A stretch of DNA of 17,220 nt from a virus, in the IMG/VR virus record IMGVR_UViG_3300045988_133601, positions 1 through 17,220 of that record; one strand, given 5' to 3'. How positions within the stretch are numbered: position 1 is the first letter of the stretch; every line of letters starts with the position of its first letter. Shown here one piece after another: positions 1 through 17,220 of this stretch. Made by a program: the position numbers and the translations under genes. Under the pieces are notes generated by a model that ran no database searches, was not told the origin of the DNA, and saw only the letters and a program-made list of their open reading frames with translations.

Positions 1-76
1 AAAGATATATACTGTCCGTCCCACGCGGACATTTTCCCAATTTTGTCCGCGTACGGCGGACAGCACTTTGCACAAT

Positions 77-111
77 AAAAGCGGTGTCCGCCAGGGAAAG
101 ACACCGCTTTT
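77..111. terminator. Hairpin with flanking A4/T4 runs inside ITR-L (reads as an intrinsic terminator on either strand)
   Basis: aaaa-GCGGTGTC(81-88)-11 nt loop-GACACCGC(100-107)-tttt. Confidence 0.5.
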
Positions 112-150
112 GCAAACTATTTCATTGCATTTGTTCACTTTTTAATACTT

Positions 151-159
151 ATTATAACA
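151..159 (-). promoter_or_regulatory. Extended -10 element TGTTATAAT facing the left terminus
   Basis: The minus strand reads TGTTATAAT (159 to 151). There is no convincing -35. The hairpin/T-run at 111-77 lies about 35-65 nt downstream. Confidence 0.3.
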
Positions 160-192
160 CATATGCCCGAAATTTTTATGCATTTTTCCAAC

Positions 193-221
193 TTGACAAA
201 TACGCTTTACCCGACTAAAGT
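193..221 (+). promoter_or_regulatory. Sigma-A-like promoter facing inward (ITR-L copy)
   Basis: TTGACA (193-198), 17-nt spacer, TAAAGT (216-221). At this end it would fire antisense to the late genes; the mirrored copy at 17000-17028 points toward the early genes. Confidence 0.3.
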
Positions 222-776
222 GTTAGTCCCGTCTAATTGTCTATACAATTCAACAATTATTCACGTTTTCCTCCCGATTCACACACAATTCTTCCGTTTT
301 ATTAACTCATTTTACCCGAAAAGTGGGCAAAACCGCCAGTTTGTCCGCGGGTCGCGGACACATCGGAAACGGGGACTCACTTTAGTCTGCTAAAGTGTCC
401 GCGAGTGACGGACACGGCGCGTCCATTCGCTTCGCTCCCGTCCGCGCCTGCCCTTGCGGGGTCACCGCTCCGCGGTTGCCCGCGGCTGCCATGTGGTTGA
501 TTATATGTGTAACGTTTGTGATCGCCCGGTGTCGTCCGCTCCGCGGACTGCCTGTTATTTATATGTGTAAAGTTAGTAATCGTGAGTGATCGCTCGGTTG
601 TCCGCCGATGACCGCCGGAGGCGGTTGCCCTCCGGGTGGCGGACACGGGCGCGCCTGCCCTCCGGTGTCACCGCTTCGCGGTTGCCCATGGTTGCCCACG
701 TCGTCCGCTCCGCGGGATGCCCGTTGTTTATATATGTGTAATTCTTTGATACTTAGTTAATTAAAAGTTTCGTTAT

Positions 777-2429
777 TTAATTAACATCGTATGCAGATAA
801 ACAGTTACTTAGAATAGCAAAGAAACATGGATATAGGGAAATGTATGTTTCTTTTGTATCAACTGTCCACATAATAAGTGGTATATCATTACTAACGCAC
901 AAATTGTAAAATTTTTCGTTGAAATATATATAACCACCGCTCATCGCAACTGTGTTTGTATCTGTTCTTAATGATTGTATTTGTCTGATTACAGACATAA
1001 AACTGTTATCATCAAGTGTGGCTGAATATCCTGCGCCAATTCCTAATTTTGCATTAGGTAAAATGTTTTTTACCATAAGTAAATTATTATATGAAAATGA
1101 TATAAACCATACATTATCAATCATTCCATACTTCTTTACTATATTAATAATTGAATTTACCATATTTTCTGTATAAACAACTTCGTCTTTCAGTTCAATA
1201 AATGGTTTTAATCCATTTGATTTGCAAAAAGACATAAATTCATCAAAAGTAGGAATATGTGTCCCTTTGTATTTTGCATTTTTCCAGATACCAAAGTCAT
1301 AAGTCAATGCTTGCTGATAGGTTATATCTCTAATCGCAATATCACTTGTTAGTTTTGACCCGTCTGGATTTCGTGCTGTTCTGTTGATCGTGGCATCATG
1401 TAATAATACTGGTATATTATCAGATGTAAAAAGAACATCAGTTTCGACATACACAAAACCCTCTTTTGCTGATAACTCAAAAGCAGGAATTGTATTTTCG
1501 GGTGCAACTGTATTGAATCCTCTGTGATTAATAAAAATAACATTTGATGTAATATTTTTCATTTTTTTATTAAGATCAATTATATCTTTTTTTTCATTTT
1601 CTACTACATCAGTTATTCTCATATTAGAAGAAACATATTCTGGAGACAATATTTCACCAGTATCATAAAAATCAATTACAAACTGATAATTTCTATATTT
1701 ATTTGATAATTCATTAAAATTGACAGAATGAATGTATAGTGTATTATCGAAAATCTTGATAAAATCACTTCCATTCCACGTTCCAATATATACGTCATTT
1801 TGAAAAGCGCATACATACATTCTATATGACGATTCTACAATATATCTTTTGTTGACAAAACTTTTTGTCCTACACCAAGTTTTACTTTCTGTTTTAGTTC
1901 CGTCAACGATAGCGTAATAACCTTGTTCAATTTCTAATATCGTTGAATAGATATTATTGTTTAATTCTGTTTTTACTGATGTGATTCTTAATCCTGTTGA
2001 TTTAGAATCTGCGGCGGCATTTTCTATTGTTAATGACTTGTCGAGTGGCGGATTTGATGGATTAGTGATATTAGCTGTCAACCATGTTGTTACGTCATTG
2101 CTTACAGTTGGTGTCAACAAATTCAGCAGTGCTCCGCTATTTTTCATTTCTTCTATTTTCTTGTTGACTTCACCTTGTAAATCGAGATTTGTAAAAAACT
2201 GATTGATAAAATCATGTAATGCTTTATAACTTTTTACAAGTTCATCCTGCGCATCAAACATTTCTTTTACTGTCTTAAACAGCACAACGAATTTGTTTTC
2301 CAGACTCAACGTTCCATTGAAATCATACGGAATCCCCCGCACACTTGCTACAACTTCACACGCCTGCGTAATCATTTGACCGAAATCGGGCAAACTAGGA
2401 AAATTTGGAACTGTAGGTTTCTTTTCCAT
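777..2429 (-). CDS. Tail appendage / receptor-binding protein with C-terminal glycerophosphodiester phosphodiesterase (GDPD) domain
   Basis: 550 aa; SD AAGGAGGA upstream of the ATG at 2429. NHRGFNTVAPENTIPAFELSAKEGFVYVETDVLFTSDNIPVLLHD matches the HRG..PENT..AF...E.D...T.D...V.HD signature of the GDPD (GlpQ/UgpQ) family. It is the last gene of the structural block, the position of phi29 gp12. Confidence 0.8.
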   Translation of the reverse strand: MEKKPTVPNFPSLPDFGQMITQACEVVASVRGIPYDFNGTLSLENKFVVLFKTVKEMFDAQDELVKSYKALHDFINQFFTNLDLQGEVNKKIEEMKNSGALLNLLTPTVSNDVTTWLTANITNPSNPPLDKSLTIENAAADSKSTGLRITSVKTELNNNIYSTILEIEQGYYAIVDGTKTESKTWCRTKSFVNKRYIVESSYRMYVCAFQNDVYIGTWNGSDFIKIFDNTLYIHSVNFNELSNKYRNYQFVIDFYDTGEILSPEYVSSNMRITDVVENEKKDIIDLNKKMKNITSNVIFINHRGFNTVAPENTIPAFELSAKEGFVYVETDVLFTSDNIPVLLHDATINRTARNPDGSKLTSDIAIRDITYQQALTYDFGIWKNAKYKGTHIPTFDEFMSFCKSNGLKPFIELKDEVVYTENMVNSIINIVKKYGMIDNVWFISFSYNNLLMVKNILPNAKLGIGAGYSATLDDNSFMSVIRQIQSLRTDTNTVAMSGGYIYFNEKFYNLCVSNDIPLIMWTVDTKETYISLYPCFFAILSNCLSAYDVN

Positions 2430-2440
2430 TATTATCCTCC

Positions 2441-3202
2441 TTAATAAAATTGATAGAAAAGTTCTTTACAGTCATCGCAGATACGTTTGTTAAGATTAAG
2501 GATAGTATCGCGGAATCTCTGTATCTCTAAAGAGTAACTTCCGTCAAACCCCTCATCCTCAATCGTATCATTGTTATCTGCGTGATACGTGTCATTGCTA
2601 TTGGTTTTTGTGGTATTCTCGCCATTACTGATCGCGCTGTTGTGAATCGTATTTTGCCCCCGTTCCATCGTAGATGCGTAATTCGTTCCGGCAAAATTGA
2701 TCTGCGGATTGTCAGAGTGAATATTTTGTGTGTCGTTATTTGTATCGGCTGATGTTGTGTTTTTTGCTGTGCTGTCTCCGGAGATCACACCAGTTCGTGT
2801 ATCATCTTTCGTACTTGTTACTTTTCGCGTACTCTTATGAGTAATCAGCGGGTTATACTCAAAAGTAATACTCCGGTACAACTGCTCATAGTATGGCATA
2901 TTGAGTGTGAGAATCTTTTTTAGATGATATTGAAATTCTCCGACAGTTTCCAACCCGATCTGCTCGCGGAAATACTGCAAACAGAACGTTTTTTCGAATG
3001 CCAGCTTTACAGCGGCATATTCCACGGAATCTGCATCCACATAGAAAGGAAAATCAAAATTGAACACCAACGCAACCGCTTTTTCGATCATACCGTCAAT
3101 GTTTTGCTTTTCGAGGGGATGTATGACGTTATCTGCAATGACCAACTGTTCAATGGTATTCGTCAGTGTTTTGGTTTCGTAGTCATATTCAAGAAACATC
3201 AT
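2441..3202 (-). CDS. Lower collar protein (phi29 gp11-like by position)
   Basis: 253 aa; SD AAGGAGGTGG. It overlaps the portal stop by 4 nt and follows the portal as in phi29. The C-terminal half is S/T/N/D-rich. Homology not verified. Confidence 0.55.
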   Translation of the reverse strand: MMFLEYDYETKTLTNTIEQLVIADNVIHPLEKQNIDGMIEKAVALVFNFDFPFYVDADSVEYAAVKLAFEKTFCLQYFREQIGLETVGEFQYHLKKILTLNMPYYEQLYRSITFEYNPLITHKSTRKVTSTKDDTRTGVISGDSTAKNTTSADTNNDTQNIHSDNPQINFAGTNYASTMERGQNTIHNSAISNGENTTKTNSNDTYHADNNDTIEDEGFDGSYSLEIQRFRDTILNLNKRICDDCKELFYQFY

Positions 3203-4119
3203 TCCACCTCCTTATCATCTTCTTTGTTGTCAAAAACATCTGGTCTGTTAATCGGTGTCACCATTTTCGAATTAAAGCGAACATGGATATTAAGACCGTA
3301 CATTGCGTTAATCGCGTCAAGTCCTCTCTGAATGGTTGCCAGATTTCCGTTTCTTGTCAACTCGATTTCTCCATCGTTGTAACTCGTTTCCGCGGAAACT
3401 AGCCGTTCCGGTTTTTCAACGCCGCTTGCTTCGATTCCAAGGTCTGCCAGACACTCTGCCACTTCTCTCTGTGCGGCAGTATCTAACTCGTTAAAAATCG
3501 GCTGTACTTTCAGATCAATCGTGTCAATCTGAATCTGCTTTCTTAAATCGTTTTTCGCTTTGATAAATGGAATATTTTTAACCCACTTCTGAATAAAATT
3601 ATCAATCGACAACTTCTGTGTACTATCCCCGCTGATGACAACTGGCGTCCTCTGCTGAATGACGTTTACCCTTGTGGACGCTTTTTTCTCCGCCAAACTC
3701 TGTGCGTGCAGAATAATGCTGAGAATTTCAGGAACGGCAAAAGGTCTGGCAAAAATCAGCGCGCTTTCTTCCTTATCTGTCTGTTCGTAGTATTGCCCAT
3801 TCATGGCGTATGCAATCCAATCAGTTGGAATCCCGTAAATGTCGGGTTCACCAACCAGATTAACACCAAACACTCCGAAAAGTCCGGTGATTGGCTCTTT
3901 TTTAAACAGGCACATTCCTTGCCATAACAGATATGAGTTGAGCATCCGTGGTGGAATCTCATCCGGTAAACCGTCATACTCATACCGAGATAACGCTAGA
4001 TTTACAAACTTATCAAAAAAGTGTCGGAAATACATTTTTTCCTCCGGTGACGTATTCGGGTTATTTTCCCAGCGTCCCCAAACTTCTTTGTTGCTCACCC
4101 GATACGGGTTATTATACAT
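3199..4119 (-). CDS. Portal / upper collar connector (phi29 gp10-like)
   Basis: 306 aa (phi29 gp10 is 309 aa); SD AAGGAGGTG. EKPERLVSAETSYNDGEIE and INAMYGLNIHVRF resemble remembered gp10 segments EKKERMVTDEVSSNDEQIE and INELYGLNVKVKF. Confidence 0.85.
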   Translation of the reverse strand: MYNNPYRVSNKEVWGRWENNPNTSPEEKMYFRHFFDKFVNLALSRYEYDGLPDEIPPRMLNSYLLWQGMCLFKKEPITGLFGVFGVNLVGEPDIYGIPTDWIAYAMNGQYYEQTDKEESALIFARPFAVPEILSIILHAQSLAEKKASTRVNVIQQRTPVVISGDSTQKLSIDNFIQKWVKNIPFIKAKNDLRKQIQIDTIDLKVQPIFNELDTAAQREVAECLADLGIEASGVEKPERLVSAETSYNDGEIELTRNGNLATIQRGLDAINAMYGLNIHVRFNSKMVTPINRPDVFDNKEDDKEVE

Positions 4120-4131
4120 GACATCACCTCC

Positions 4132-5697
4132 TTAATCATTGGAAAGACCATAGTTTCCAACATCGTCCGTATGCCAGAACGTAACGCCCTTGTTAAACAT
4201 TGACTGTAAAAAGTTGATATCATCGGTGACGCAAGTTCCATGCAATCCACAATTTACGGTTTTAACAAAATTCCAGTTTGTTCGCCCGGTGATATTCGGC
4301 ACTTTGATTCTATGCGTTGCATATCCGTACATGGTGAAATAATCGTCAATTACTTTCGCCATTTCTGGCGTTACACACATTGTCTTTAGAGCAATGGTAT
4401 TGCTAAAAAGTGCTGTTTGTACATAACTTCCAGTAGCACTTCCTTTTGCAGTTGGTGGAATTAAATCGTGTTGCTCCATCTGTGCTGAAATATTTTCGCC
4501 AAACATAAAATTGCTTACTGTCTGACCGATACTGCTTTCGATGGCTTTTCCGAAATTACCGCTTAATACGTTTGCAATGGTTGATACAACACTTTTTCCA
4601 GTATCAATATACTGCTGTTTTGTCTGATAATCCCATATAGGTTGAGACTGTGCAAGCCATGCTTGATACGCGTCATTTGTCCACGCGCAAGTTGGGAAAT
4701 TGCTATAGGTAAACGCATATGGTGTGTTAGCAGTAAGTTCATGTTTATAATTTTTTGGATAAATGTATATTGATGGAATATTTAATTTTACACCTTGCGC
4801 GGTAAATGTAATCTTTTGATCTTTGAAATATTCAAGTCGAAAAACATATTGTGTTCCATCGTGTGCGTCTGCGATTAAGTACGAAAACGGATATTGGAAA
4901 AGTTTTTTATTTTTTGGTGTATATCCTGCAAGTGTTGACGGGAAAATCATGGAAAAATCTTTTGGACTTTCAGAAAAACATAAATTGGGCGCTTGAAATA
5001 TAGATACAATGGCATCCGCGTTACCACTTTTTGAATAGGCTTGAATTTTTTGCTTTATTGTATCAAAATCAGTCGTGCTAAAATAAGTCAAGCCAGACAT
5101 AATTTTTTGATTTAATTCCGGCTCCAGTGCAACACCGTTTTCATCTGCGCTTGCAATGAGACAATAGTTCATCAGTCCGAAACCCATACCAGCAGAAGTA
5201 TTAACTATATATTCTCCCGTTTCCAGATTTTCGGGGACTAGATTCGCACCTACTGCGTCATCTGCTTTCGCAACGTGTTCTCGCTCTACATAGCACGGTT
5301 GAAGTACCACATCGTAAAAACTGTTCTGAAAACGATCGGGTTCGAAATAAATCTTGAAACTTCCGTCACTCAACCATTCTACGCGCGTCACAAAACCGAA
5401 ATACCATTCTTCCGTATAGGGTTTGTTCTGAAAAGCAATATAATTGCATTTCAGAAAATCACTCTCATTCCCTTTTCCTTTATACGTCAGTTCCCCCCAT
5501 CGTACCGGGGCAGACTGCATAAACGTATGAATCGCTTTTTCCTTTACGTGCGCCAGGCACCCTGCTTTTCCGTTTTCGTAGTATCTTACGTGTTCATAAT
5601 CGTTTCCCCACTCAATCCCACTAGCTAAAATAACCGTTGTCTGCGGGGAAACCGCCGCCACATCTGTATGCGGCGGCATCGGAATAAAATTATCCAT
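4132..5697 (-). CDS. Tail knob / distal tube protein (phi29 gp9-like)
   Basis: CNYIAFQNKPYTEEWYFGFVTRVEW..YFEPDRFQN resembles remembered gp9 SYIMFQNADYGNKWFYAFVTELEF..HFEIDVLQT. The ORF track starts at GTG 5706, but ATG 5697 sits at proper spacing behind GAGAGGTGG, so 5697 is preferred. Confidence 0.8.
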   Translation of the reverse strand: MDNFIPMPPHTDVAAVSPQTTVILASGIEWGNDYEHVRYYENGKAGCLAHVKEKAIHTFMQSAPVRWGELTYKGKGNESDFLKCNYIAFQNKPYTEEWYFGFVTRVEWLSDGSFKIYFEPDRFQNSFYDVVLQPCYVEREHVAKADDAVGANLVPENLETGEYIVNTSAGMGFGLMNYCLIASADENGVALEPELNQKIMSGLTYFSTTDFDTIKQKIQAYSKSGNADAIVSIFQAPNLCFSESPKDFSMIFPSTLAGYTPKNKKLFQYPFSYLIADAHDGTQYVFRLEYFKDQKITFTAQGVKLNIPSIYIYPKNYKHELTANTPYAFTYSNFPTCAWTNDAYQAWLAQSQPIWDYQTKQQYIDTGKSVVSTIANVLSGNFGKAIESSIGQTVSNFMFGENISAQMEQHDLIPPTAKGSATGSYVQTALFSNTIALKTMCVTPEMAKVIDDYFTMYGYATHRIKVPNITGRTNWNFVKTVNCGLHGTCVTDDINFLQSMFNKGVTFWHTDDVGNYGLSND

Positions 5698-5711
5698 GTT
5701 TCCCACCTCTC

Positions 5712-7022
5712 TTAATCGGAAGTAAAGTAAATGGTTGCCGTTTTGGAAGAATCGTAACGACTGGTGATCACAACTTTAACACTATCTGTTTCATTTGCTT
5801 TCGGTTTCAAATTCTTTTCATCTTTTGCAATTCGAAGAATTGTTGTACCCGGAATAACAAACGTATCGGCAGAAGAGTTACCCTTTACTTTTACGTCAAT
5901 CGCTTTATCAGATACCCCTTTAGAAGTAACTGAAAAACTTCTGCCAAAGTCCACATCTGTTCCAGCTTTCACCAGTTCCACGTCACTTGCGGTAATGGAA
6001 GAAACATCAACCGTCTCGGTCGTAAACACAATGATCGGATAAAACAGTGAGTACGAGAACATCTCTTTTACTGTATACGTACTGTTCCAACGCAGTCCGC
6101 GATTAACGTTATCCTGTACCATCATGCGATACTGTTCGCGGATTTTGAAAAACCGCTTGTCCACCAGCACGGCAACAATATCCTCAGCATCGTTAAAGTT
6201 ATCAATTAAAACCTGCTGTGCTTTCGGAATCATCCGGTCGAGATTGTACGCGCTTGCATAACTGTCAACGTTCATCGCGGCTTTGGTATCTGGGTCGACA
6301 AACAGAAGAATGGTATCTTCTTTTGCCGCCGATGTCGCGCCTGCAAAGTTGTACAGTGGGTTCGGAAACTGAATTTTATCAATATAAGACTGAATCTGTT
6401 TTGCAAGCGCATTGGCACTCGCCTGGTCAGTAACCGGGTCTACGTGTACCGGATAAATCTGACCCTTGCTCTTTGCAGATGCAATCAGTTCTTTTGCCGT
6501 GGTAAACTCATCCCAGTTACAAGCGGAAACGACACTCTCTACTTTTGCCTGTACCAGACTTCTGAGTCCGTAATCATCGAGAAATGCGCCGCGCATATCC
6601 TCAAACCAGATCGTCACCGGATAATCGTTGTTGAAATTGATTACATGATACAGCGCCATGATATAGCTGTCATAAATGGCGGTCGCATCTTCGATGCTGA
6701 TATTCGCATCGTGCGCATAGCCCTGTGCAAAATTTACGTAGACTTCCTGTTCTCCGTTTCCAAACGGCATGGCGTTACTATTCAACACGCGCAGAGGATT
6801 GCGGAACGCTTCGGTACTGATGGACTGGCTGGCAATCAGATTGACTAGTGCCGGAACGAGTTCGTTTCTTGCCATCGGATTGTATGGGTCAGTTAACGTT
6901 TTCGCAATATCTGCGATATTTTCGCGTGTTGCCACAGGGACGCGGTCACGGTAATCAACGCTCATCGTCTGCCGAACGGCGTTCAGCATATTAATATTGG
7001 TCATATCTAATTTTTCTGCCAT
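5712..7022 (-). CDS. Major capsid protein (phi29 gp8-like), probably with a C-terminal Ig-like domain
   Basis: 436 aa; SD GGAGAG. NMLNAVRQ..YRDRVPVATRENIADIA and AVLVDKRFFKIREQYRMMVQDNVNRGLRWNSTY resemble remembered gp8 segments IVNAIRNS..FKSYVPLATANNVAEVG and [33 protein letters not shown]. The beta-rich C-terminal ~90 aa sits where gp8 has its BIG2 domain. Confidence 0.9.
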   Translation of the reverse strand: MAEKLDMTNINMLNAVRQTMSVDYRDRVPVATRENIADIAKTLTDPYNPMARNELVPALVNLIASQSISTEAFRNPLRVLNSNAMPFGNGEQEVYVNFAQGYAHDANISIEDATAIYDSYIMALYHVINFNNDYPVTIWFEDMRGAFLDDYGLRSLVQAKVESVVSACNWDEFTTAKELIASAKSKGQIYPVHVDPVTDQASANALAKQIQSYIDKIQFPNPLYNFAGATSAAKEDTILLFVDPDTKAAMNVDSYASAYNLDRMIPKAQQVLIDNFNDAEDIVAVLVDKRFFKIREQYRMMVQDNVNRGLRWNSTYTVKEMFSYSLFYPIIVFTTETVDVSSITASDVELVKAGTDVDFGRSFSVTSKGVSDKAIDVKVKGNSSADTFVIPGTTILRIAKDEKNLKPKANETDSVKVVITSRYDSSKTATIYFTSD

Positions 7023-7026
7023 GTTT

Positions 7027-7371: not shown

Positions 7372-7372
7372 G

Positions 7373-9723: not shown

Positions 9724-9747
9724 GTACATTTGTCCGTCTCCCACGAA

Positions 9748-10887
9748 CTATTTATAAAGATCAATCCCTAGTAACTCAACAGCCATATTCTTGCTGTCTA
9801 GATCGTCAAACCGCAAATATGCTTTGCGGTATGCGTCAACTAGATTTTCAAACAAATAATCATAGTGTTCCAACATAACCGTGTTTTGGGTATGATCACC
9901 GTCCCGAAAAACCGCGACAAAATTACAAGACGGGTTATAGTTGTGCGTGATATAGATATACCCCTCTTCGTAATACTCATATACCCCATAACTTTTTCCA
10001 CTATGCTCGATGGTGAACAGATACCGCGACCGTCCGGTCGGCTTTTGTACAAACACGGCATCATCAATCAACATCTGATCTCCAACACTCATGCTTTGCA
10101 TATAGTGACCGCCGCGGAATGCTTTCAAAGCAGTATTCTCCCACATGGCTTTACTGGCACTGTCATTGTGAGTAAACTCACACACAAAACCGCTCCCATG
10201 CAGCATTTTTGTTTCTTTCTGGTATCTCTTATGGATACCAAAAAATACAAAATAGGGATTGAGCAACGAAATATTATTGGATGCCATCACCAGTTTAAAC
10301 CATCGGGACTGACTTCCGTTTCCGCGGCTAATCGTCAATAGCAACGATTGCAGTTTTTCAGATTCCCCTTTTACGTATTGTCCGCTTTCCATGCTGAACT
10401 CGTCAAAAAACAAAAAGTAGATATCCCGAAAATACGGAGACGCTTTTTTTACAATGTCCATCTTACTTCCAAAACTAAACGCGCATCCGAATGGCACGCC
10501 GTCCAGAAAATACCGCACAACATTTCCGTTTTTGTCCAGATTTTTATAGGTAATCACACTTCCTAATTTAGGATACATTCTTAGCATATCTTCGTACATC
10601 GCCGCCGCTCCCGTCATTTCCCCTTTCGTCCGGAAAATCCATCCGGTCTGCAATCCGTACTCTTTGCACAAGATACAGCTTGCCGCGGCGAACGCACTTG
10701 TCTTTCCGGCGCTACGGTTGGAACACGTAATTGCCACTCCAGCGAATTCCCCGTCCACGTCCGGCTCGGTAAACAAGCGGATCGGGTTATAATACTGGAT
10801 CGGCTTGCCATCATCCGAGACCGCTTCAAATTTCACATCATAATCTTCAAAAAGTTTTTCCCAATTGATATCATTCCAAAAAATCAT
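9748..10887 (-). CDS. DNA encapsidation ATPase (phi29 gp16-like)
   Basis: 379 aa. Walker A is SNRSAGKTS and Walker B is IYFLFFDEF. NNISLLNPYFVFFGI and AYLRFDDLDSKNMAVELLG resemble remembered gp16 segments SNAVSVVNPYFLFFNL and GYLRFDNQVIRNIAYELF. Confidence 0.9.
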   Translation of the reverse strand: MIFWNDINWEKLFEDYDVKFEAVSDDGKPIQYYNPIRLFTEPDVDGEFAGVAITCSNRSAGKTSAFAAASCILCKEYGLQTGWIFRTKGEMTGAAAMYEDMLRMYPKLGSVITYKNLDKNGNVVRYFLDGVPFGCAFSFGSKMDIVKKASPYFRDIYFLFFDEFSMESGQYVKGESEKLQSLLLTISRGNGSQSRWFKLVMASNNISLLNPYFVFFGIHKRYQKETKMLHGSGFVCEFTHNDSASKAMWENTALKAFRGGHYMQSMSVGDQMLIDDAVFVQKPTGRSRYLFTIEHSGKSYGVYEYYEEGYIYITHNYNPSCNFVAVFRDGDHTQNTVMLEHYDYLFENLVDAYRKAYLRFDDLDSKNMAVELLGIDLYK

Positions 10888-10913
10888 TGTTCACGTGAAA
10901 CATTTTGTTTCAC
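10871..10913 (-). promoter_or_regulatory. ATPase translation-initiation region: SD-led 10-codon upstream ORF (10903-10871) overlapping the ATPase ATG, embedded in three consecutive hairpin arms
   Basis: The minus strand reads GGAGGAA-GTGAAACA-aaa-TGTTTCAC-GTGAACA-ATG. The only SD serves ATG 10903 (MFHVNNDFLE*, +1 frame relative to the ATPase); the ATPase ATG 10887 has no SD of its own. Confidence 0.4.
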
Positions 10914-10971
10914 TTCCTCCTTTCTATCGTTTCCACAACCCGCGCACCGCGTCCCGCATAATCTATGTTAA

Positions 10972-10990: not shown

Positions 10991-11003
10991 CTCTCAGCAG
11001 ACA

Positions 11004-11033
11004 ATCTCACGTTTATCGCACGATGATCGCACG
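11004..11033. repeat. Three iteron-like direct repeats ATC(T/G)CACG with an exact 11-bp period
   Basis: ATCTCACG 11004-11011, ATCGCACG 11015-11022, ATCGCACG 11026-11033. Confidence 0.7.
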
Positions 11034-11078
11034 TTTTGACTGCGGATGGACGGCGGGTAAGGGCAGAGCTTCGCTGGG

Positions 11079-11112
11079 TATAAAAAGAGCTACGCTGGAA
11101 AACGTAGCTCTC
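11079..11112 (-). terminator. Rho-independent terminator downstream of the early/middle genes
   Basis: Minus strand: AGAGCTACG (11111-11103), 8-nt loop, CGTAGCTCT (11094-11086), then TTTTATA. Confidence 0.65.
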
Positions 11113-11132
11113 TTACACGTATGGAATGAAGT

Positions 11133-11161
11133 TTTATAACACAAGATATAGTAACAATCAA
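11133..11161 (-). promoter_or_regulatory. Sigma-A-like promoter with extended -10, only ~15 nt upstream of the terminator hairpin
   Basis: Minus strand: TTGATT (11161-11156), 17-nt spacer ending in TGt, TATAAA (11138-11133). Confidence 0.4.
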
Positions 11162-11227
11162 CTACAGGTAACATCAATACTCAAGTTACCGTCCGCCAGT
11201 CGGAGCGCGTACCCAGTTCATGGTTAC

Positions 11228-11650
11228 TTATTCCATAAATGGGTTAAACTTTTCGGTATCACCGAACTTATGAACGTTTACCGCGGAAAGGTATGCGGTG
11301 AATCCCTTGTCGCGACGGAACTTGCTTTCTCCGATAGAGATGAACAGGTCAACTACTGCGCCTTTTCCGAGTTCGTCAACGCTCGAAACGGTGTCGCTCT
11401 CTACGCTGTCCTCGTAAAAAGCTACTTTATAGCTGGTCTGCGCTTTTACGTAAAGTCCATCTTTGTCGGTTTCTTTTGCAGGAATCCATTTTGCTTCTGC
11501 GGCGGCATCTTCGCCAAACTCTTCGATGATTTTTTCAAAAATGTCTTTCTGCTGATCGGCAGAGATAGACGCGGAAAGAACACTTTTTCCGTCTTCCTCT
11601 TTTGCGTATTTAACAGTTACGTTGTTCAGTCTCATTTTCGCTTTGCTCAT
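11228..11650 (-). CDS. Probable single-stranded DNA-binding protein (T7 gp2.5 / DUF2815-like), otherwise hypothetical
   Basis: 140 aa from ATG 11650 behind AAAGGAGAA; ATG 11674 of the ORF track has no SD. MRLNNVTVKYAKEE.. and ELGKGAVVDLFISIGESKF..KGFTAYLSAVNVHKF follow the gp2.5-like pattern (G.G..V.....S......G.....L.AV). Aromatic/acidic C-terminus FNPFME. It follows a p6-like gene, as gene 5 follows gene 6 in phi29. Confidence 0.45.
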   Translation of the reverse strand: MSKAKMRLNNVTVKYAKEEDGKSVLSASISADQQKDIFEKIIEEFGEDAAAEAKWIPAKETDKDGLYVKAQTSYKVAFYEDSVESDTVSSVDELGKGAVVDLFISIGESKFRRDKGFTAYLSAVNVHKFGDTEKFNPFME

Positions 11651-11755
11651 GATTTCGTTCTCCTTTTGATTCATTTATTTGTTATGCAAAACCGCGGCGC
11701 GTTGCTTTGATCGGTTACGTCTTATCTGGACGATTCCAGACCGCGGGTTGTGCGC

Positions 11756-12025
11756 TTAGTCCATTCGTTTTGCTTCTGCAAAACACTGCTCATCCGGCAT
11801 TCTTTTTGCTTCTGCAAAAAACTGCTCATCCGGCATTTCGTAGCGGGCGGAAACGGTGTCGGTTAAGACACAAACAGAATTTTCTGCGTAGCCTGCGGAA
11901 GTGAGCGCGTTTACTTTTGCTTTCTGAGATTTTAATTCTACGGTGGACTCAAAAAAGCCGATCACCTGTTTTGTGTTTCTGTCAATGACAGAATAGATAA
12001 ATTTTTCGATTTTTGTTCTAACCAT
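11756..12025 (-). CDS. Small early protein, possible phi29 p6-like dsDNA-binding protein, with a duplicated C-terminal 12-aa unit
   Basis: 89 aa; SD AAAGGAGAA. SARYEMPDEQFFAEAKR resembles the remembered p6 segment TEVYELPVEKFLEVATV. MPDEQFFAEAKR is repeated as MPDEQCFAEAKR. Confidence 0.4.
   Translation of the reverse strand: MVRTKIEKFIYSVIDRNTKQVIGFFESTVELKSQKAKVNALTSAGYAENSVCVLTDTVSARYEMPDEQFFAEAKRMPDEQCFAEAKRMD
11761..11832. repeat. 36-bp tandem direct repeat, two copies, in frame inside the 89-aa gene
   Basis: 11761-11796 vs 11797-11832 differ at 2 of 36 positions, one synonymous (Arg CGA/AGA) and one Cys/Phe. Confidence 0.9.
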
Positions 12026-12070
12026 TTTTTTTCTCCTTTCGTTATGTGGTTATTTGTTCTTACAAGTATT

Positions 12071-12099
12071 ATAATAGCACTGCCTACCAAAAAAGTCAA
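12071..12099 (-). promoter_or_regulatory. Sigma-A-like promoter in front of the p6-like/SSB gene pair
   Basis: Minus strand: TTGACT (12099-12094), 17-nt spacer ending TGc, TATTAT (12076-12071). Confidence 0.5.
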
Positions 12100-12102
12100 T
12101 AG

Positions 12103-12225
12103 TTAAAATAAGAAAATAAAGAAAATATCCAAAAATAAAAGCAGGATGGAAAGGTCGAGTTCTTCTTCATGTAACGCCCAGATCGTTGATAATACTAAAA
12201 ACATAAAAAACACAAAATATCTCAT
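12103..12225 (-). CDS. 40-aa strongly hydrophobic mini-protein (two predicted TM segments), below the ORF-track cutoff
   Basis: Hand translation: MRYFVFFMFLVLSTIWALHEEELDLSILLLFLDIFFIFLF*. SD AGGAGA overlaps the polymerase stop codon and lies 5 nt before the ATG (translational coupling). Confidence 0.5.
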   Translation of the reverse strand: MRYFVFFMFLVLSTIWALHEEELDLSILLLFLDIFFIFLF

Positions 12226-12233
12226 ATCGTCTC

Positions 12234-14393
12234 CTATTCCGGTAACACTCCGTCTTGAGAGTTTACCAATACTTCATAGTATTCATTCGATACACCTAAG
12301 GTATAAGTGGTATCAATGATTCCTATATTACTTGCAGTTAATATTTCTTCCCCGTTGACTTTGATGTAATGGGGTTTCGAGTTGTTAAAGCAACTGATTG
12401 TCCGTCCGACATTTTCCATCCGGCGGCAGAGACGGAAATTATTACAGCACTTTAAGTTTTCCGCTCCAAGTTTCTTATTCATGCCAGCGACCGTAGACGT
12501 AAAACGCACGGGGTCTTTGCCAGATTGCGCCGCTTTTTCGTCCCATTCAACGCCGCAGTATTTTTTCGCGCCAAGGGTCTTAAACTGGATATAGAGGTCA
12601 TCCATATCCCAAACGCCGAGAATATAACGGTTGTCACCAACGTCACAAAACGCAGGAATGTCATTATCAATCGCACGTTTTGAAAGTAATTTGTTTTTCG
12701 CTTCAAATTCTGGAATGTGTACTTCTGGATGCAAAAACTTAATACTGTCGGTGTCGCAGTATACTACATCCATACCAACCACGTCCAGCATATCTTGTAA
12801 CTGCTTTCTTGCGTGGGCGGTAACATAGATTCCCCATTGATAGTGCAGAAAGCTATTCTTGCTTTCATAATACGTGTTCAGTGCTTTTTCCGCATCTGCT
12901 TTTTCCCGATGCCATTCTCCCGTAAAAGCATCCATTGCCCATTCGTCCTGCAAAAGATCGGTTACACACATCCCGAACGTGCTGTTTAGTTTATTCTTAG
13001 ATTTCATATATTCATAGACTTTATCGGGATTTCCTTTCAACTGGCTTTTTGCGATAAAAAATGACATCATCGTTTTACGCATACTTTCCGGTAATTTTCC
13101 GCGCGCGGCTACGTAGCACTCCGAGACGGTAAAGAAATCATAGTCGTATTGATTTTTTATGATCGACAAGTCAATTTCCGTCATTGCTATTTCACAGCAA
13201 TCAATCGACAATACGCGTCCATTATCAATCACACAATCTTTCCCGTGCTTCTGACACTTTGACAGCGGGATATACGGGACGGGGATATTTTCTTTCATAC
13301 GCAAGTTGTCAAATTGTACCCGCATGATAACACAACGTGTAGCACACAAATTGTCAAACTGTTCTTGCGATGTAATCTCAACCGCCCGAAACGCACTCAT
13401 GGGATAGTAACCCATTGCTATCTGCGCGGGGTAGCTACTGGAAATATCCATGCTTCCCATTACGATTGCGTTTTCCCCTTTTTTCGCGGTGATCGTGTGC
13501 CCCGCGTGGATGCGGTTGGCGTGCGTGTTGCCGCCGCGGAACGCGTCTTTACAGAGTTGGTACTGCGGTAACGTGAGCGCAAGATCAGTAAATGCATCGG
13601 GATAATAGTTTTTATCCGCTTGCATGGCACGGCGGAACTCGCGCCGGACGTAGCCAGTGGAGGTAAGGGGGATTTCTGCGATGTTGTCCTCTTTACGCGC
13701 GGCGCGGATACACTCGCAGAGACCGCGAACATCATTATAGCAATATCCCTGTTCAACGTCCGTAAGAGGTGTTATTGGTGTACGTAGTTTTTTGTAATCA
13801 TACGTATCAACCAGTTTATAATGGGTTACACACTCACTGTTTTCACAGAATTTCGCAAGACTCATGTTGCTGAGAAAATACGAACAGCGGAACTCGATAC
13901 CGTACTTGTAAGCGTAACATTTCATCACTTTATGTGCGTCACGCGCAAAAATTTCCGAAAACTCAATGAAATCTTTCATAAACTGGAATTCATAGGAAAG
14001 ATTATGTACGTAAACAACTGCACGTTTTTTGTCCGACGTTTGCAAGTATAAATGCAGTTTTTCGCAGAATGAAAGAAAGTCGTTCCATGTACGACCAAAG
14101 CATACCGTATCTTTCAAACAAAACTGCCAGTGATACAGAAAGGCAGTTCCTTTTACTACTTTTTCGCCCGTTTTATTATAGCGTTCATAGTCCAATTTTT
14201 CCAACGTAGTTGTTTCAATATCAAACGCCATTTCCACGTCATAATAAACGATAGGATTTTTCTTTCTACCACGCTTGCGGCATTCGCGCAAGTTCTGGAA
14301 AGATGTAAACGGAAAATCGTCAACACTGTAAATTGTTTCACGTGAAACATTCTCTTTCCCGTCTAGAATAACAGGGACTTCTAACTCGTACAT
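12234..14393 (-). CDS. Protein-primed family-B DNA polymerase (phi29 gp2-type)
   Basis: 719 aa. ExoI FDIETTT, ExoII HNLSYEFQF, ExoIII YCYNDVRGL, motif A DISSSYPAQ (phi29 DVNSLYPAQ), motif B KLNSTFGM (Kx3NSxYG), motif C YCDTDS (identical to phi29), KxY motif GAKKY. Confidence 0.95.
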   Translation of the reverse strand: MYELEVPVILDGKENVSRETIYSVDDFPFTSFQNLRECRKRGRKKNPIVYYDVEMAFDIETTTLEKLDYERYNKTGEKVVKGTAFLYHWQFCLKDTVCFGRTWNDFLSFCEKLHLYLQTSDKKRAVVYVHNLSYEFQFMKDFIEFSEIFARDAHKVMKCYAYKYGIEFRCSYFLSNMSLAKFCENSECVTHYKLVDTYDYKKLRTPITPLTDVEQGYCYNDVRGLCECIRAARKEDNIAEIPLTSTGYVRREFRRAMQADKNYYPDAFTDLALTLPQYQLCKDAFRGGNTHANRIHAGHTITAKKGENAIVMGSMDISSSYPAQIAMGYYPMSAFRAVEITSQEQFDNLCATRCVIMRVQFDNLRMKENIPVPYIPLSKCQKHGKDCVIDNGRVLSIDCCEIAMTEIDLSIIKNQYDYDFFTVSECYVAARGKLPESMRKTMMSFFIAKSQLKGNPDKVYEYMKSKNKLNSTFGMCVTDLLQDEWAMDAFTGEWHREKADAEKALNTYYESKNSFLHYQWGIYVTAHARKQLQDMLDVVGMDVVYCDTDSIKFLHPEVHIPEFEAKNKLLSKRAIDNDIPAFCDVGDNRYILGVWDMDDLYIQFKTLGAKKYCGVEWDEKAAQSGKDPVRFTSTVAGMNKKLGAENLKCCNNFRLCRRMENVGRTISCFNNSKPHYIKVNGEEILTASNIGIIDTTYTLGVSNEYYEVLVNSQDGVLPE

Positions 14394-14401
14394 TTTTACA
14401 C

Positions 14402-14980
14402 CTACTTCAATTTTAGTCTAGTTTCTGCAAAGAGTTCGTCTTCCGTAATGTAGCCGTCCAGATACTCTTTATACTCATCCATGATATCTTCGTAATCATA
14501 AGTATTATCACTCATTTTCAGAAGAAAATCATCAATGATCTGATTTGAGTCTAACTCTCTTCTAAGACTCTTCTTATATAAGTTGGACGTCAAAAAACGA
14601 TATAAATCCTTGTAATTACTTTCGTCTACTTTTTCTGCAATTTTCCCAGAATTGTCAAAACGTCGTTGCAATTCCGCAACACGATATCCCTCCAATGTTG
14701 TTTCGGGTGCGTTCAAAAACGCAACCATTGTATCCCATTCCTGCCGGAGAGATGCTTCCGATCGTTTTACGCCTTTCAAGAAACGGTTTTTTTCACGCCC
14801 TTGAGACGCAAAAAATTCTTTTACGCGTCCGTACGCCCATTGGTCGCGGGCGTGAATTTTTTCCAGTTTGGCAAGGCGGCTATTTGCCGCCTGCGCAACA
14901 CGTGGGAGTTCACGTTTGATCTGATCAAGGGAGAGATCAAGTTCCTGGTAGATACTATAATCCTTTGATTGTGACATCAT
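14402..14980 (-). CDS. Candidate terminal (priming) protein
   Basis: 192 aa, immediately upstream of the polymerase as phi29 gene 3 is. Basic N-terminal two thirds; highly acidic, Tyr/Ser/Thr-containing C-terminus (SDNTYDYEDIMDEYKEYLDGYITEDE). No sequence similarity could be verified. Confidence 0.35.
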   Translation of the reverse strand: MMSQSKDYSIYQELDLSLDQIKRELPRVAQAANSRLAKLEKIHARDQWAYGRVKEFFASQGREKNRFLKGVKRSEASLRQEWDTMVAFLNAPETTLEGYRVAELQRRFDNSGKIAEKVDESNYKDLYRFLTSNLYKKSLRRELDSNQIIDDFLLKMSDNTYDYEDIMDEYKEYLDGYITEDELFAETRLKLK

Positions 14981-15204
14981 TCACACCCCCTTATAGTTAA
15001 GATTATGCCCTCATCATTTGAATCAATTTCAATTACTTCTTCGCTCAGTAACACACGGTTGCCATTATCAATATTTGCTATTCCATTCTTTGCAAGAAAA
15101 CTTGTTATCATGATATCATGTTTTTTACCAAAAATACTCATTCTCGCTTTGATAGTAATACGAGTATAACTTAAACACAATTCCGTAATATCTTTTACTC
15201 TCAT
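14977..15204 (-). CDS. Small early protein, paralogue family member A
   Basis: 75 aa; SD GGAGGTG; 4-nt overlaps with both neighbours. N-terminus MRVKDI..ITIKAR..IFG parallels the next gene. Confidence 0.7.
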   Translation of the reverse strand: MRVKDITELCLSYTRITIKARMSIFGKKHDIMITSFLAKNGIANIDNGNRVLLSEEVIEIDSNDEGIILTIRGCE

Positions 15205-15446
15205 ATGTTTGTCACCTCCCCATTAATATAAAGCATTAATGTTGTATCATAGATAATAATACCCTCTACTTCCTTGCAGAGTAACCATCGGTCTTCTTCA
15301 TCAAAACCGCGCATTATACTTGCGTTACATTCCCATGTTCTAATTATTGTTTCTTGCAATTCCCCAAACACACGGTATCTTGCGTAGATTTGTACAGTAA
15401 TCATGTGTACGGATTTTATTTTATTTAATATATCTTTTATTCTCAT
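15201..15446 (-). CDS. Small early protein, paralogue family member B
   Basis: 81 aa; SD GAGG. N-terminus MRIKDI..ITVQIYARYRVFG. Confidence 0.7.
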   Translation of the reverse strand: MRIKDILNKIKSVHMITVQIYARYRVFGELQETIIRTWECNASIMRGFDEEDRWLLCKEVEGIIIYDTTLMLYINGEVTNI

Positions 15447-15449
15447 TTC

Positions 15450-15698
15450 TCAACCTCTATTCTCTAATTCAATACGCACACCGTCCGTATCAATGTATAC
15501 ATAAGTAACAGCACACTTTCCATATGTTTTAACCGTATAAGAGTCAAGTAAATCTTTTCCAATTCCAGAAAAGATAATATGTTCTCGACCTAAGTATATA
15601 CGTACATCTTTACTACTATAACAATAAGATGCGACTTGAAACAAATTTTTGCAGTCAAAAAGTTTCTTTCTAAACTCTCTATTAGCGTTTACTATCAC
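15450..15698 (-). CDS. Small early protein, possible third paralogue
   Basis: The ORF track starts at TTG 15725 (no SD). An in-frame GTG at 15698 lies 6 nt behind AGGAGA, giving 82 aa. VRIYLGREHIIFSG and IDTDGVRIELE loosely parallel members A and B. Confidence 0.55.
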   Translation of the reverse strand: MIVNANREFRKKLFDCKNLFQVASYCYSSKDVRIYLGREHIIFSGIGKDLLDSYTVKTYGKCAVTYVYIDTDGVRIELENRG

Positions 15699-15718
15699 AT
15701 CAAGTCTCCTTTCTACAA

Positions 15719-16096
15719 TTAGCAACCGCGTTCTTCATAATAATGACAATCTTCGAAAAGATTGTTATCTTTATCATACAGCGGACACTCTGTACAATTA
15801 TCGTTAGCAGAACAGATAACGGAATGTTTGATTTCAATATAATAAGTTATGTAAGCATAACGAGTACTTGCGGAATTATTGGATTTTACAGTAAATCCGG
15901 CACCAAAACGTCCTTTATATGGTTTCGGATTATAGGTTGCATTTTTACGAATGTAACCGTTTGTCATAAACGAGTGAGAATAAGCATACACTTTAAACTC
16001 CATTCCTACTTTTCTTGTTACATAGAAAGGAAGGTCAACAACGCTATTTTGCATTTTAACAAGTTCTTCATAAGTCATTTTTTGATTAATTCTCAT
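15719..16096 (-). CDS. Early protein with Cys-rich C-terminus (possible metal-binding), function unknown
   Basis: 125 aa; SD AAGAGGA. C-terminus CSANDNCTECPLYDKDNNLFEDCHYYEERGC (C-x5-C-x2-C ... C-x8-C). Confidence 0.7.
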   Translation of the reverse strand: MRINQKMTYEELVKMQNSVVDLPFYVTRKVGMEFKVYAYSHSFMTNGYIRKNATYNPKPYKGRFGAGFTVKSNNSASTRYAYITYYIEIKHSVICSANDNCTECPLYDKDNNLFEDCHYYEERGC

Positions 16097-16144
16097 GTTA
16101 TCCTCTTTTCTCCCCGTATTGCCGATAGATCAGCAGTTTTAATT

Positions 16145-16423
16145 TTATCTATTGCAAGACATCTTGTAGGTAGCAGACATTTCCGGTCTAAGATCTGTGT
16201 AGTAATAAAAAGCATCTTCCGAAAAATGCTCTCCATTTACTATTTCTATTCCATTTTCATAGATAGAAAAGAAAATTTCACTATTTTCTTTCATAGCTTG
16301 TGAACAGAAAGTTTTTACTAAACCATTTGCTATTAATAATGACTCAACTTTATATCTGAAAATCTCTTTTCCATATTTTGTTACTACAACTTCATAGCCA
16401 CTATGTCTATTAATTTCTTTCAT
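16145..16423 (-). CDS. First early protein, function unknown
   Basis: The second ATG (16423) lies 8 nt behind GGAGGA, which is itself formed by the first ATG codon region; this gives 92 aa. The ORF-track start 16438 is possible but has no SD. Confidence 0.7.
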   Translation of the reverse strand: MKEINRHSGYEVVVTKYGKEIFRYKVESLLIANGLVKTFCSQAMKENSEIFFSIYENGIEIVNGEHFSEDAFYYYTDLRPEMSATYKMSCNR

Positions 16424-16480
16424 TTTTGTTTCCTCCATTTTCTATTTTTGTATTATTGGTTTTTCCTTGTTTCTGATATT

Positions 16481-16509
16481 ACAATACAACTTTTCTATAA
16501 ATATGTCAA
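16481..16509 (-). promoter_or_regulatory. Early promoter
   Basis: Minus strand: TTGACA (16509-16504), 17-nt spacer, TATTGT (16486-16481), about 50 nt upstream of the first early gene and just inside the right ITR boundary. Confidence 0.5.
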
Positions 16510-16512
16510 TGC

Positions 16513-16537
16513 TTTTCTAGAAAAATTTCTAGAAAAT
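16513..16537. promoter_or_regulatory. Two tandem TTTCTAGAAA palindromes (operator-like) abutting the -35 of the early promoter
   Basis: TTTTCTAGAAAA 16513-16524 is a perfect 12-bp palindrome; TTTCTAGAAA 16526-16535 is a perfect 10-bp palindrome. Centres are 12 bp apart. Confidence 0.6.
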
Positions 16538-16999
16538 TTATATCACTAATCCTACACAAATAAACCCTACACCCGTATCCGCCACCCGGAGGACAACCGC
16601 CTCCGGCGGTCATCGGCGGACAACCGAGCGATCACTCACGATTACTAACTTTACACATATAAATAACAGGCAGTCCGCGGAGCGGACGACACCGGGCGAT
16701 CACAAACGTTACACATATAATCAACCACATGGCAGCCGCGGGCAACCGCGGAGCGGTGACCCCGCAAGGGCAGGCGCGGACGGGAGCGAAGCGAATGGAC
16801 GCGCCGTGTCCGTCACTCGCGGACACTTTAGCAGACTAAAGTGAGTCCCCGTTTCCGATGTGTCCGCGACCCGCGGACAAACTGGCGGTTTTGCCCACTT
16901 TTCGGGTAAAATGAGTTAATAAAACGGAAGAATTGTGTGTGAATCGGGAGGAAAACGTGAATAATTGTTGAATTGTATAGACAATTAGACGGGACTAAC

Positions 17000-17028
17000 A
17001 CTTTAGTCGGGTAAAGCGTATTTGTCAA
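17000..17028 (-). promoter_or_regulatory. ITR-R copy of the inward promoter TTGACA-17-TAAAGT, oriented toward the early genes
   Basis: tgtcaa at 17023-17028 and acttta at 17000-17005 on the plus strand. Confidence 0.35.
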
Positions 17029-17061
17029 GTTGGAAAAATGCATAAAAATTTCGGGCATATG

Positions 17062-17070
17062 TGTTATAAT
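17062..17070 (+). promoter_or_regulatory. ITR-R copy of the terminus-facing extended -10 TGTTATAAT
   Basis: Mirror of 151-159. Confidence 0.3.
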
Positions 17071-17109
17071 AAGTATTAAAAAGTGAACAAATGCAATGAA
17101 ATAGTTTGC

Positions 17110-17144
17110 AAAAGCGGTGTCTTTCCCTGGCGGACACCGCTTTT
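17110..17144. terminator. ITR-R copy of the hairpin with flanking A/T runs
   Basis: Mirror of 77-111. Confidence 0.5.
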
Positions 17145-17220
17145 ATTGTGCAAAGTGCTGTCCGCCGTACGCGGACAAAATTGGGAAAATGTCCGCGTGG
17201 GACGGACAGTATATATCTTT

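Follow-up and report, generated by a model that had tools for sequence, protein, structure and literature searches.

The question raised by IMG/VR virus record IMGVR_UViG_3300045988_133601 is whether the inverted repeats of about 650 nt at its two extremities are the genuine termini of a phage genome and, if so, what they do. The record, analysed here over its whole length of 17,220 nt (the window), represents an uncultured phi29-like podophage of the gut, whose linear genome it contains in full, and a preliminary description made from its sequence had presented it as the genome of a protein-primed phage with exceptionally long inverted terminal repeats (ITRs). We find that the ITRs are true genome ends, and we consider it probable that they act as a composite non-coding control region for protein-primed replication from both ends. 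What is new here is a precisely placed palindromic element, a putative origin module, that is common to several distant lineages of gut phages.

Protein-primed phages are the model for the replication of linear DNA ends, and both the phi29 polymerase and orthogonal replication systems come from them. The origin of the model phages consists of a few terminal bases together with a non-specific DNA-wrapping protein. The ends of the window instead comprise hundreds of bases under strong selection, and begin with a placed pair of palindromes common to dissimilar phages, which points to a sequence-specific origin factor.

Inverted repeats at the genome ends

The repeat and its terminal bases are as follows.
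1-649: left ITR arm, exact over 1-627 and degenerate over 628-649
16572-17220: right ITR arm, reverse complement of 1-649
1-12 (plus strand): terminal AT-rich dodecamer 5'-AAAGATATATAC, mirrored at 17209-17220, presumed protein-priming site

When the arms were compared base by base, 1-627 proved to be exactly complementary to 16594-17220, with mismatches at 628, 644 and 650 and no identity from 652 onwards. A chance origin of an exact inverted repeat of 627 nt is impossible. The repeat begins at the first and last base, so that both 5' ends read AAAGATATATAC, and the two arms together amount to 1,298 nt or 7.5% of the 17,220. The preliminary description had given the same coordinates, with degenerate identity to 649, and the same share of the genome, and had taken the ends for true termini, which comparison with other assemblies now bears out.

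In all, 51 whole contigs of relatives were rebuilt. Seventeen IMG/VR contig ends from related but non-identical phages, reading AAACATATATA.., AAATATATATAC.. or AAACGTATATAC.., stop at exactly the same AAA base as the window, and so do eight further ends (one reading AAAGATATATACAG) in ENA/JGI metagenome contigs assembled by other groups. The terminal AAA is invariant in these approximately 25 ends and is followed in relatives by C, G or T; ENA contigs retrieved via the candidate terminal protein (TP) begin at ITR position 6. Some contigs have a full ITR on their early-gene side only, others on their late-gene side only, and mismatches between the arms of relatives are confined to the inner edge, as in the window.

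A palindrome pair at a fixed distance from the end

Four 19-bp palindromes lie in each arm.
13-31: palindromic site 1, TGTCCG-N7-CGGACA, mirrored at 17190-17208
44-62: palindromic site 2, 31 bp from site 1, mirrored at 17159-17177
342-360: palindromic site 3, TGTCCG-N7-CGGACA, mirrored at 16861-16879
396-414: palindromic site 4, 54 bp from site 3, mirrored at 16807-16825

The window thus holds eight copies, against 0.04 expected, and none of them outside the ITRs. In 23 distinct related ends the half-sites never change and all four positions are fixed, whereas the N7 spacers vary. A scan of 800 kb of related genomes gave six matches to the palindrome with one mismatch, all of them at a single coding position.

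The outer pair, with its 12-nt spacer, is not restricted to close relatives. It was found in 76 IMG/VR stretches, all within about 100 nt of a contig end, and in 45 stretches of the metagenome collection, in which the phage-like ones (about 38) are likewise at contig ends; the seven internal metagenome matches were set aside as unrelated repeats. Besides the window clade, at least five other lineages with PolB (family B DNA polymerase) sequences 31-41% identical to that of the window carry the dual element. These include a 14-kb group (ITR of 240-313 nt), L179 (138 nt), L175 (about 359 nt after removal of adapter), L315, L277, L294 and a 17-kb lineage (375 nt). In L277 the two sites start at nt 10 and 41, and those of the window clade and L315 at nt 13 and 44; at least six lineages have the same 31-bp phasing. 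Complete ends of the motif lineages read 5'-AAA, then 9-10 variable bases, then (T)GTCCG, and in the cross-lineage alignment the half-sites are invariant and a C-rich spacer separates the sites. The terminal motif therefore appears to be older than the window clade.

Since content, spacing and distance from the end are fixed despite the divergence of the proteins, sequence-specific recognition is the best explanation for the pair. A pure hairpin role is disfavored, because a structure would be expected to covary. The palindromes sit at a fixed distance from the terminus and are conserved independently of their flanks, as are the auxiliary origin sites of adenovirus. The putative factor reading them could be a host protein, a phage protein not yet recognised as such, or TP or PolB itself through a conserved surface.

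In some relatives (L037, L036 and L012) tandem 9-nt repeats, GTCCGTYCC, follow right after the fourth palindrome at about nt 415-450; these are direct repeats of the half-site and would fit GTCCG as the recognition unit.

Conservation without coding in the rest of the repeat

The remaining parts of the ITR are these.
77-112: hairpin (stems GCGGTGTC/GACACCGC) between runs of A and T, mirrored at 17109-17144
113-341: AT-rich, highly conserved non-coding segment that holds the promoter-like site and the broken open reading frame (ORF) 163-393
193-221 (plus strand): inward sigma-70-like site TTGACA-17-TAAAGT, mirrored at 17028-17000 (minus strand)
378-397: another palindrome, with 8-bp arms, CACTTTAG-TCTG-CTAAAGTG, between sites 3 and 4
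421-649: variable inner part, 62% G+C, with GTCCGC..GCGGAC-type hairpins followed by the TTATATGTGTAA motif
658-741 (plus strand): extra degenerate copy of an inner module, confined to the left side; it includes a terminator-like hairpin (702-724)

The only sizeable ORF of the ITR (163-393) has lost its start or carries a frameshift or stop in 10 of 23 relatives, and a coding reading of the ITR was rejected for that reason. Positions 1-420 are nevertheless 90-97% identical among relatives. In the same genome pairs the genes for PolB, major capsid protein (MCP), ATPase and portal are 70-79% identical at codon position 3 and 95-98% at positions 1 and 2. Third codon positions thus evolve three to four times as fast as the outer 420 nt. 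Conservation does not drop below 82% in any 20-nt window of 1-420, in contrast to 421-649, which aligns poorly. The outer two thirds of the ITR are under purifying selection or are exchanged between strains, and the inner third is plastic; that the repeats are non-coding and functional, as had been supposed, is in keeping with both the broken ORF and the slow evolution of the outer part.

The hairpin at 77-112 has a G+C-rich stem of 8 bp, and the A and T runs beside it give it the look of a terminator acting on both strands; one relative has a compensatory change in this stem from G-C to A-T. On the minus strand no other terminator-like site lies between the late stop codon (777) and this hairpin. 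Some of the inner modules score as inward-facing terminators. Module copy number sets ITR length among relatives, the longest of which repeat a module of about 120 nt around three times. Tandem Repeats Finder returned only two 10-nt stutters from the ITR, the modules being too diverged or too few. The additional copy at 658-741, which is 82-87% identical to 452-490 and 531-568, occupies part of the stretch from the ITR to the stop codon that ends the last late gene, so that the repeat array runs slightly past the strict ITR on the left side.

As to the promoter-like site, a sequence containing its TTGACA (ACTTGACAAAT, nt 190-200) recurs at about 210-225 in the ITR of L175, whose PolB is 41% identical; the distance from the end is similar by eye only and there is no obvious -10. 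An outward extended -10 read by eye at 156-151 was dropped, as it falls on the most variable hexamer of the segment.

A probable composite control region and its alternatives

In the probable reading of the ITRs given above, the complex of TP and PolB would initiate opposite an internal T of 3'-TTT and slide back as in phi29; the second or third T as template would suit an invariant AAA followed by a fourth base that is free to vary. The two terminal palindromes would bind a dimeric, sequence-specific origin factor of phage or host, which, held on one face of the helix by the 31-bp phasing, would position or stimulate the initiation complex beside the easily melted dodecamer. By analogy, such a layout resembles that of the adenovirus ITR with its NFI and Oct-1 sites. 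The 77-112 hairpin would halt transcription, including read-through from the late operon at the left end, and thereby shield the origin. Sites 3 and 4, together with the promoter-like site and the AT-rich segment, would form a regulatory unit, and the inner GC-rich array of modules would vary in copy number and so set the length of the ITR. Copying from one end to the other, linked to replication and proceeding by panhandle or strand-exchange repair, would keep the two arms identical. In adenovirus damaged ends are repaired from the other arm by either of these routes, and copying between ends would give perfect identity at the terminus and decay only at the inner edge.

A more far-reaching possibility, which we put forward tentatively, is that in a wide range of gut phi29-like phages a dimeric factor of phage or host reads the paired TGTCCG-N7-CGGACA 12 nt from the end, that in the window clade the sites recurring deeper in the ITR of 0.4-0.8 kb are iteron-like and couple replication to control of transcription, and that the whole is a portable, orthogonal origin module exchanged or conserved across PolB identities of 31-41%. 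Such sequence-specific origin recognition would, again tentatively, be a mode not known in cultured protein-primed phages. Whatever its mechanism, the motif together with the AAA terminus provides a simple marker of complete genomes in an abundant group of gut phages, and the arms illustrate how ITR length changes through module copy number.

Several points weigh against the composite control region. No candidate for a palindrome-binding protein emerged from Pfam, PHROGs or cross-lineage BLAST. BLAST across the motif lineages detected no small early protein common to them, and beyond PolB gave just weak TP and weak structural or lysis matches (portal, tail proteins, lysins). The small early ORFs of the window have no family match even at E <= 1. 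The 192-aa ORF taken as TP, likely but unproven, was assigned by position alone. The promoter-like site at 193-221 is just a 10/12 match, of which the genome has 63 where 44 are expected, and its spacing is destroyed by a 10-A insertion in four relatives. The proposed region does not account for the strong conservation of 113-340, and the identity of the ITRs could partly reflect exchange of ends between co-circulating strains. Across the window, no RF00044 or other Rfam family was found at E <= 1 save for a chance S15-leader match, although absence of a packaging RNA (pRNA) is unproven since pRNAs diverge fast. Finally, the palindromes also form hairpins as single strands, so that recognition could be of structure: as single-stranded DNA, nt 1-120 fold at -35.1 kcal/mol against -13.8 +/- 3.0 for shuffled sequences (z = -7.2), and flip/flop-like inversions suggest that hairpins form during replication.

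These last observations lead to the most serious alternative, in which the palindromes are hairpins on the displaced single strand (folds 12-63 and 77-112) rather than duplex binding sites, and in which a tail of 11-12 nt beside a stable stem would be recognised by the priming complex or would give telomere-like protection of the end. Sites 1 and 2 are complementary to each other (arms 12-31 and 44-63), as this would have it. The loop of 77-112 is inverted (reverse complement) in L022, L057, L323 and L324, the usual trace of template switching, and three transitions in the stem of 77-112 all leave a G.T pair on the 5'-ended strand. In the terminal pair, however, GTCCG and CGGAC stay invariant at PolB identities of 31-41%, without compensatory stem change, and the N7 spacing and 31-bp phasing are fixed while hairpin stability varies (stems of 5 to 7 bp). 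We regard it as unlikely that hairpins take the place of duplex sites, but the two are not exclusive and a hairpin role could coexist with a factor. Separately, in L323 the N7 spacers of sites 1 and 2 appear swapped or flipped relative to the window.

It is rather improbable that part of the ITR is a non-coding RNA gene present in two copies per genome, either an analogue of the phi29 pRNA or a regulatory or antisense RNA starting from the 193-221 site and ended by hairpin modules near 480-560. Conservation of the non-coding 113-420 far above synonymous sites would fit such a gene, as would the perfect -35 TTGACA with 17-nt spacing, the inward hairpins with T-rich tracts at 483-499 and 531-560, and the presence of a gp16-type ATPase with a recognisable pRNA nowhere. 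Against it, no Rfam family matches at the threshold given above, the promoter spacing is broken in four relatives, and RNAalifold on 20-21 relatives returned local hairpins only, with covariation of approximately zero (0 and 1 compensatory pairs per strand); the fold of 228-512 is unremarkable (z = -1.9). A large structured RNA is thus unsupported, with no covariation on either strand and a weak fold score. Because the relatives are too similar for a strong test of covariation, the RNA explanation is weakened rather than excluded.

Alternatively, the extra length might be functionless, the product of tandem amplification and end-to-end copying carried neutrally. Differences in the number of 120-170-nt modules do give close relatives ITRs of 414-820 nt, and the poor alignment of 421-649 would be in line with this. 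The outer 420 nt are, however, far more conserved than third codon positions (90-97% versus 70-79%), and the four palindromes hold their exact positions in all relatives. As an account of the whole ITR, neutrality is quite improbable; it is plausible for the inner array only.

The weakest alternative, very improbable indeed, is that one of the arms was created during assembly, for instance as a fold-back chimera or through double use of a repeat node, or that the molecule is circular or permuted: it can draw on the 100% identity of the outer arm parts in most assemblies, which an assembler cannot distinguish, and on extra bases past the AAA in a few contigs, but some 25 independent ends from differing samples and assemblers stop at one base, different contigs carry a full ITR on the early-gene or the late-gene side alone, the arms of the window differ at three inner positions, and the extensions are Nextera adapter or short unrelated sequence and never the opposite end. 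Moreover, the arms of OGMA01000459.1 differ at 27 of 414 positions (93.5% identical), where those of all others are 98.6-100% identical; both arms must have been assembled independently, which removes the fold-back or duplicated-node explanation. Together with the gradual decay of the arms at the inner edge, this disposes of the fold-back chimera that the preliminary description had named as a possible refutation. OGMA01000459.1 itself (L362 and L351, 17.4 kb) either combines two strains in a chimera or represents a genome whose arms had not yet been homogenised.

No contig joining end to end was found among those of the window clade. Across the 76 IMG/VR and 45 metagenome stretches with the motif there is one candidate from another lineage (L294/L332; JFBN01012173.1, 17,240 bp), in which 11 nt (GTGTACTCTTT) precede AAAGTTCC; the join reads CTTT/AAAG, as a head-to-head junction of two termini would, and it could be one. 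The extensions of 12 or 24 nt do not recur elsewhere in the locus, do not complement the terminus and are not adapter. Two contigs of unequal length (L016, nt 1-12, and L351, last 12 nt) share one of 12 nt (ATCACAATCGTT) past the AAA, and L079 has 24 unrelated nt past the terminus (nt 1-24); chimeric reads or the same underlying sample may account for these. In the 14-kb clade, L350 (CYGL01000534.1, last 560 nt) runs 438 nt past the usual terminus, and nt 1-31 of L358 are copied from an internal ITR segment; both may be rearranged or defective genomes or assembly chimeras.

Repeat length and known systems

Complete relatives from IMG/VR have ITRs of 425-816 nt, and metagenome contigs add 420, 414 and about 745 nt, so that the window clade ranges over 414-820 nt. 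Published lengths in cultured phages are 6-16 bp in phi29 and its Bacillus relatives (PMC11476376, PMC6266182, PMC9965433), 25-30 bp in Clostridium perfringens podophages (PMC3362512), 61 bp in Enterococcus phage Idefix (PMC6356687), at least 81 bp in staphylococcal picoviruses and more than 100 bp in phiWJ7 (both PMC9045211). We measured 55-81 nt in Amedibacillus AD70P2, about 170 nt in Clostridium phage HM2 and, in Cp-1, 352 nt at 97.7% identity where 236 bp are annotated; 350 bp are annotated in Mycoplasma phage P1. Diverse uncultured phi29-like contigs with both ends gave 60, 61, 115, 138, 205, 281 and about 360 nt, and span 60-410 nt. The ITRs of the clade are hence the longest found and about twice the cultured maximum, but they form the upper end of a continuum and not a separate class. 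The claim that they are exceptionally long therefore holds against cultured phages (maximum about 350 bp) and does not against uncultured ones, in whose continuum of 60-410 nt the clade stands at the top; the lengths quoted with that claim for the phi29 group and Cp-1 were correct (6-16 bp and 236 bp annotated in the sources), and the comparison across phi29-like phages that had been called for places the clade first. We see in the ITR a longer and more elaborate version of a known feature and not a new type of element. A blastn search of 50,697 phage records returned no match to its DNA, IMG/VR lacks the exact terminal 38-mer, and our literature searches turned up neither the long ITRs of this clade nor the GTCCG palindrome.

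Cp-1 (Salasmaviridae, Cepunavirus) has the longest well-studied ITR of the group. Like the window it is a protein-primed, phi29-like podophage with TP and then polymerase encoded inward from one end; AAA also opens its ITR, where promoter signals are annotated in either direction, the early promoter PE5 among them. However, that ITR is half to a third as long and has no TGTCCG-N7-CGGACA, the terminus reading AAAGCATGTACTCCCCC, and the proteins are remote (MCP 26% and portal 27% identical, no PolB match by tblastn). Mycoplasma phage P1 (Delislevirus) shares a long repeat at both ends of a protein-primed genome (11.7 kb) and a promoter per arm, but there is no sequence similarity and its arms drive two inward operons, which explains a promoter within the repeat; in the window the genes are on one strand, so that one copy of the ITR promoter faces the 3' end of the late operon. 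HM2 resembles the window in gene order, in the presence of an ITR and in PolB, ATPase and candidate TP (45%, 43% and 37% identical), and differs in its short ITR, in a terminus without GTCCG palindromes, in structural proteins only 24-26% identical and in a genome of 29% G+C.

In adenovirus, which is also protein-primed, a terminal core origin is followed at a fixed distance by palindromic sites for dimeric factors, first NFI and then Oct-1, and these factors stimulate initiation. The likeness is one of mode of working and not of membership, adenovirus being a eukaryotic virus with no homology in ITR sequence, and its factors are known whereas those of the window are hypothetical. A pRNA gene has been shown for Bacillus phages only. 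In phi29 it lies near the left end, and none is detectable in the window; there, too, the early genes read toward the left end and the ITR is short, unlike in the window. The two have in common the PolB fold family and the MCP, connector, tail knob and gp16 families, as well as a 5'-AAAG terminus whose reiterated terminal bases permit sliding back (PMC6266182, PMC11476376). The phi29 origin is activated by p6, which binds without sequence specificity (PMC4974454).

Gene content and relatives

Nearly all genes of the window are on the minus strand, from 16438 down to 777; those that could be assigned, and one promoter-like site, are listed here.
777-2429 (minus strand): tail protein that has a GDPD domain at its C-terminus; final gene of the late operon, reading outward into the left ITR
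3199-4119 (minus strand): connector/portal protein, gp10-like (Pfam)
4132-5706 (minus strand): tail knob protein, gp9-like (Pfam)
5712-7022 (minus strand): phi29-type MCP (Pfam)
9748-10887 (minus strand): DNA encapsidation ATPase, gp16-type (Pfam)
12234-14393 (minus strand): PolB of protein-primed type, 719 aa (PHROG and profile match)
14402-14980 (minus strand): candidate TP ORF, 192 aa, directly upstream of the polymerase gene
16481-16509 (minus strand): early promoter-like site (TTGACA-17-TATTGT) directly inward of the right ITR, where the sequence is unique

A small linear genome with ITRs that start with reiterated bases characterises phi29-like phages (Salasmaviridae, Guelinviridae, Rountreeviridae and unclassified allies) and is what the window has, and the phi29-type polymerase noted at the outset is confirmed along with a phi29-like gene content. 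The window proteins include a phi29-type MCP (PF25622, 2.9e-65), a gp10 connector (PF05352, 2.5e-31), a gp9 tail knob (PF20934, 6.9e-25) and a gp16 encapsidation ATPase (PF05894, 1.1e-26), all above the Pfam cut-offs; Pfam also recovered two cell-wall hydrolases and the tail protein with the GDPD domain. The 719-aa PolB matches the PHROG 1907 'DNA polymerase' family (E 3.5e-52). A profile of seven homologues searched against PDB matched phi29 DNA polymerase alone (1XHX/2PY5/2EX3, E 3e-10), in an alignment that spans Exo III and motifs A, B and C (YCDTDS). There was no Pfam match and no single-sequence PDB match, and the kinship with phi29 DNA polymerase is therefore distant.

The candidate TP ORF ends 9 nt ahead of the start of the polymerase gene, the order TP-then-polymerase being the same in Cp-1 and HM2, and the HM2 ORF at the equivalent position is 37% identical to it. 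It has 538 unnamed homologues. Its AF2 model is all-helical with modest confidence (pLDDT 68), and the top Foldseek match among 350,542 chains is the phi29 TP (2EX3_B), a non-significant one (E 0.5, TM 0.18); hhalign against the Cp-1 TP was negative and neither Pfam nor PHROGs gave a match. One would expect a covalent TP at the genome ends. The HM2 counterpart (L001, 1150-2088) is 312 aa long, and its N-terminal half appears internally duplicated. ARAGORN and a permissive Rfam search detected no tRNA and no known RNA in the window.

HM2 (LT600745) is the closest cultured relative, at the PolB identity of 45% given above, and IMG/VR holds more than 100 relatives at 89-96%. No close relative is present in 185,579 reference genomes, and two scans of GTDB gave just one PolB, 33% identical, in a metagenome-assembled genome. 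The lysins and the GDPD domain suggest a Gram-positive host. The C-terminal two thirds of the tail protein (GDPD, 777-2000) are unaligned in 98% of 50 close relatives and the N-terminus aligns; the GDPD part looks like a swapped receptor-binding or teichoic-acid-degrading module. The early region (15000-16400) is mosaic, with no alignable sequence in 50-94% of relatives, some of which have fewer early genes.

A direct repeat of 36 nt (94% identical, 11762-11833) within ORF 11756-12025 encodes a doubled 12-residue peptide, MPDEQ(F/C)FAEAKR. A perfect 14-bp palindrome, GTTTCACGTGAAAC, occurs upstream of the ATPase gene (10890-10916) and at the TP/polymerase junction (14330-14363), and also in HM2 (L001, about 10519-10547), whose proteins are just about 45% identical; it looks like a conserved operator of middle or late genes. 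Directly upstream of the early promoter-like site at 16509-16481 lie two copies of TTTTCTAGAAA, each holding the palindrome TTCTAGAA (16515-16550, minus strand); the pair is operator-like in layout and is also kept in relative 058210.

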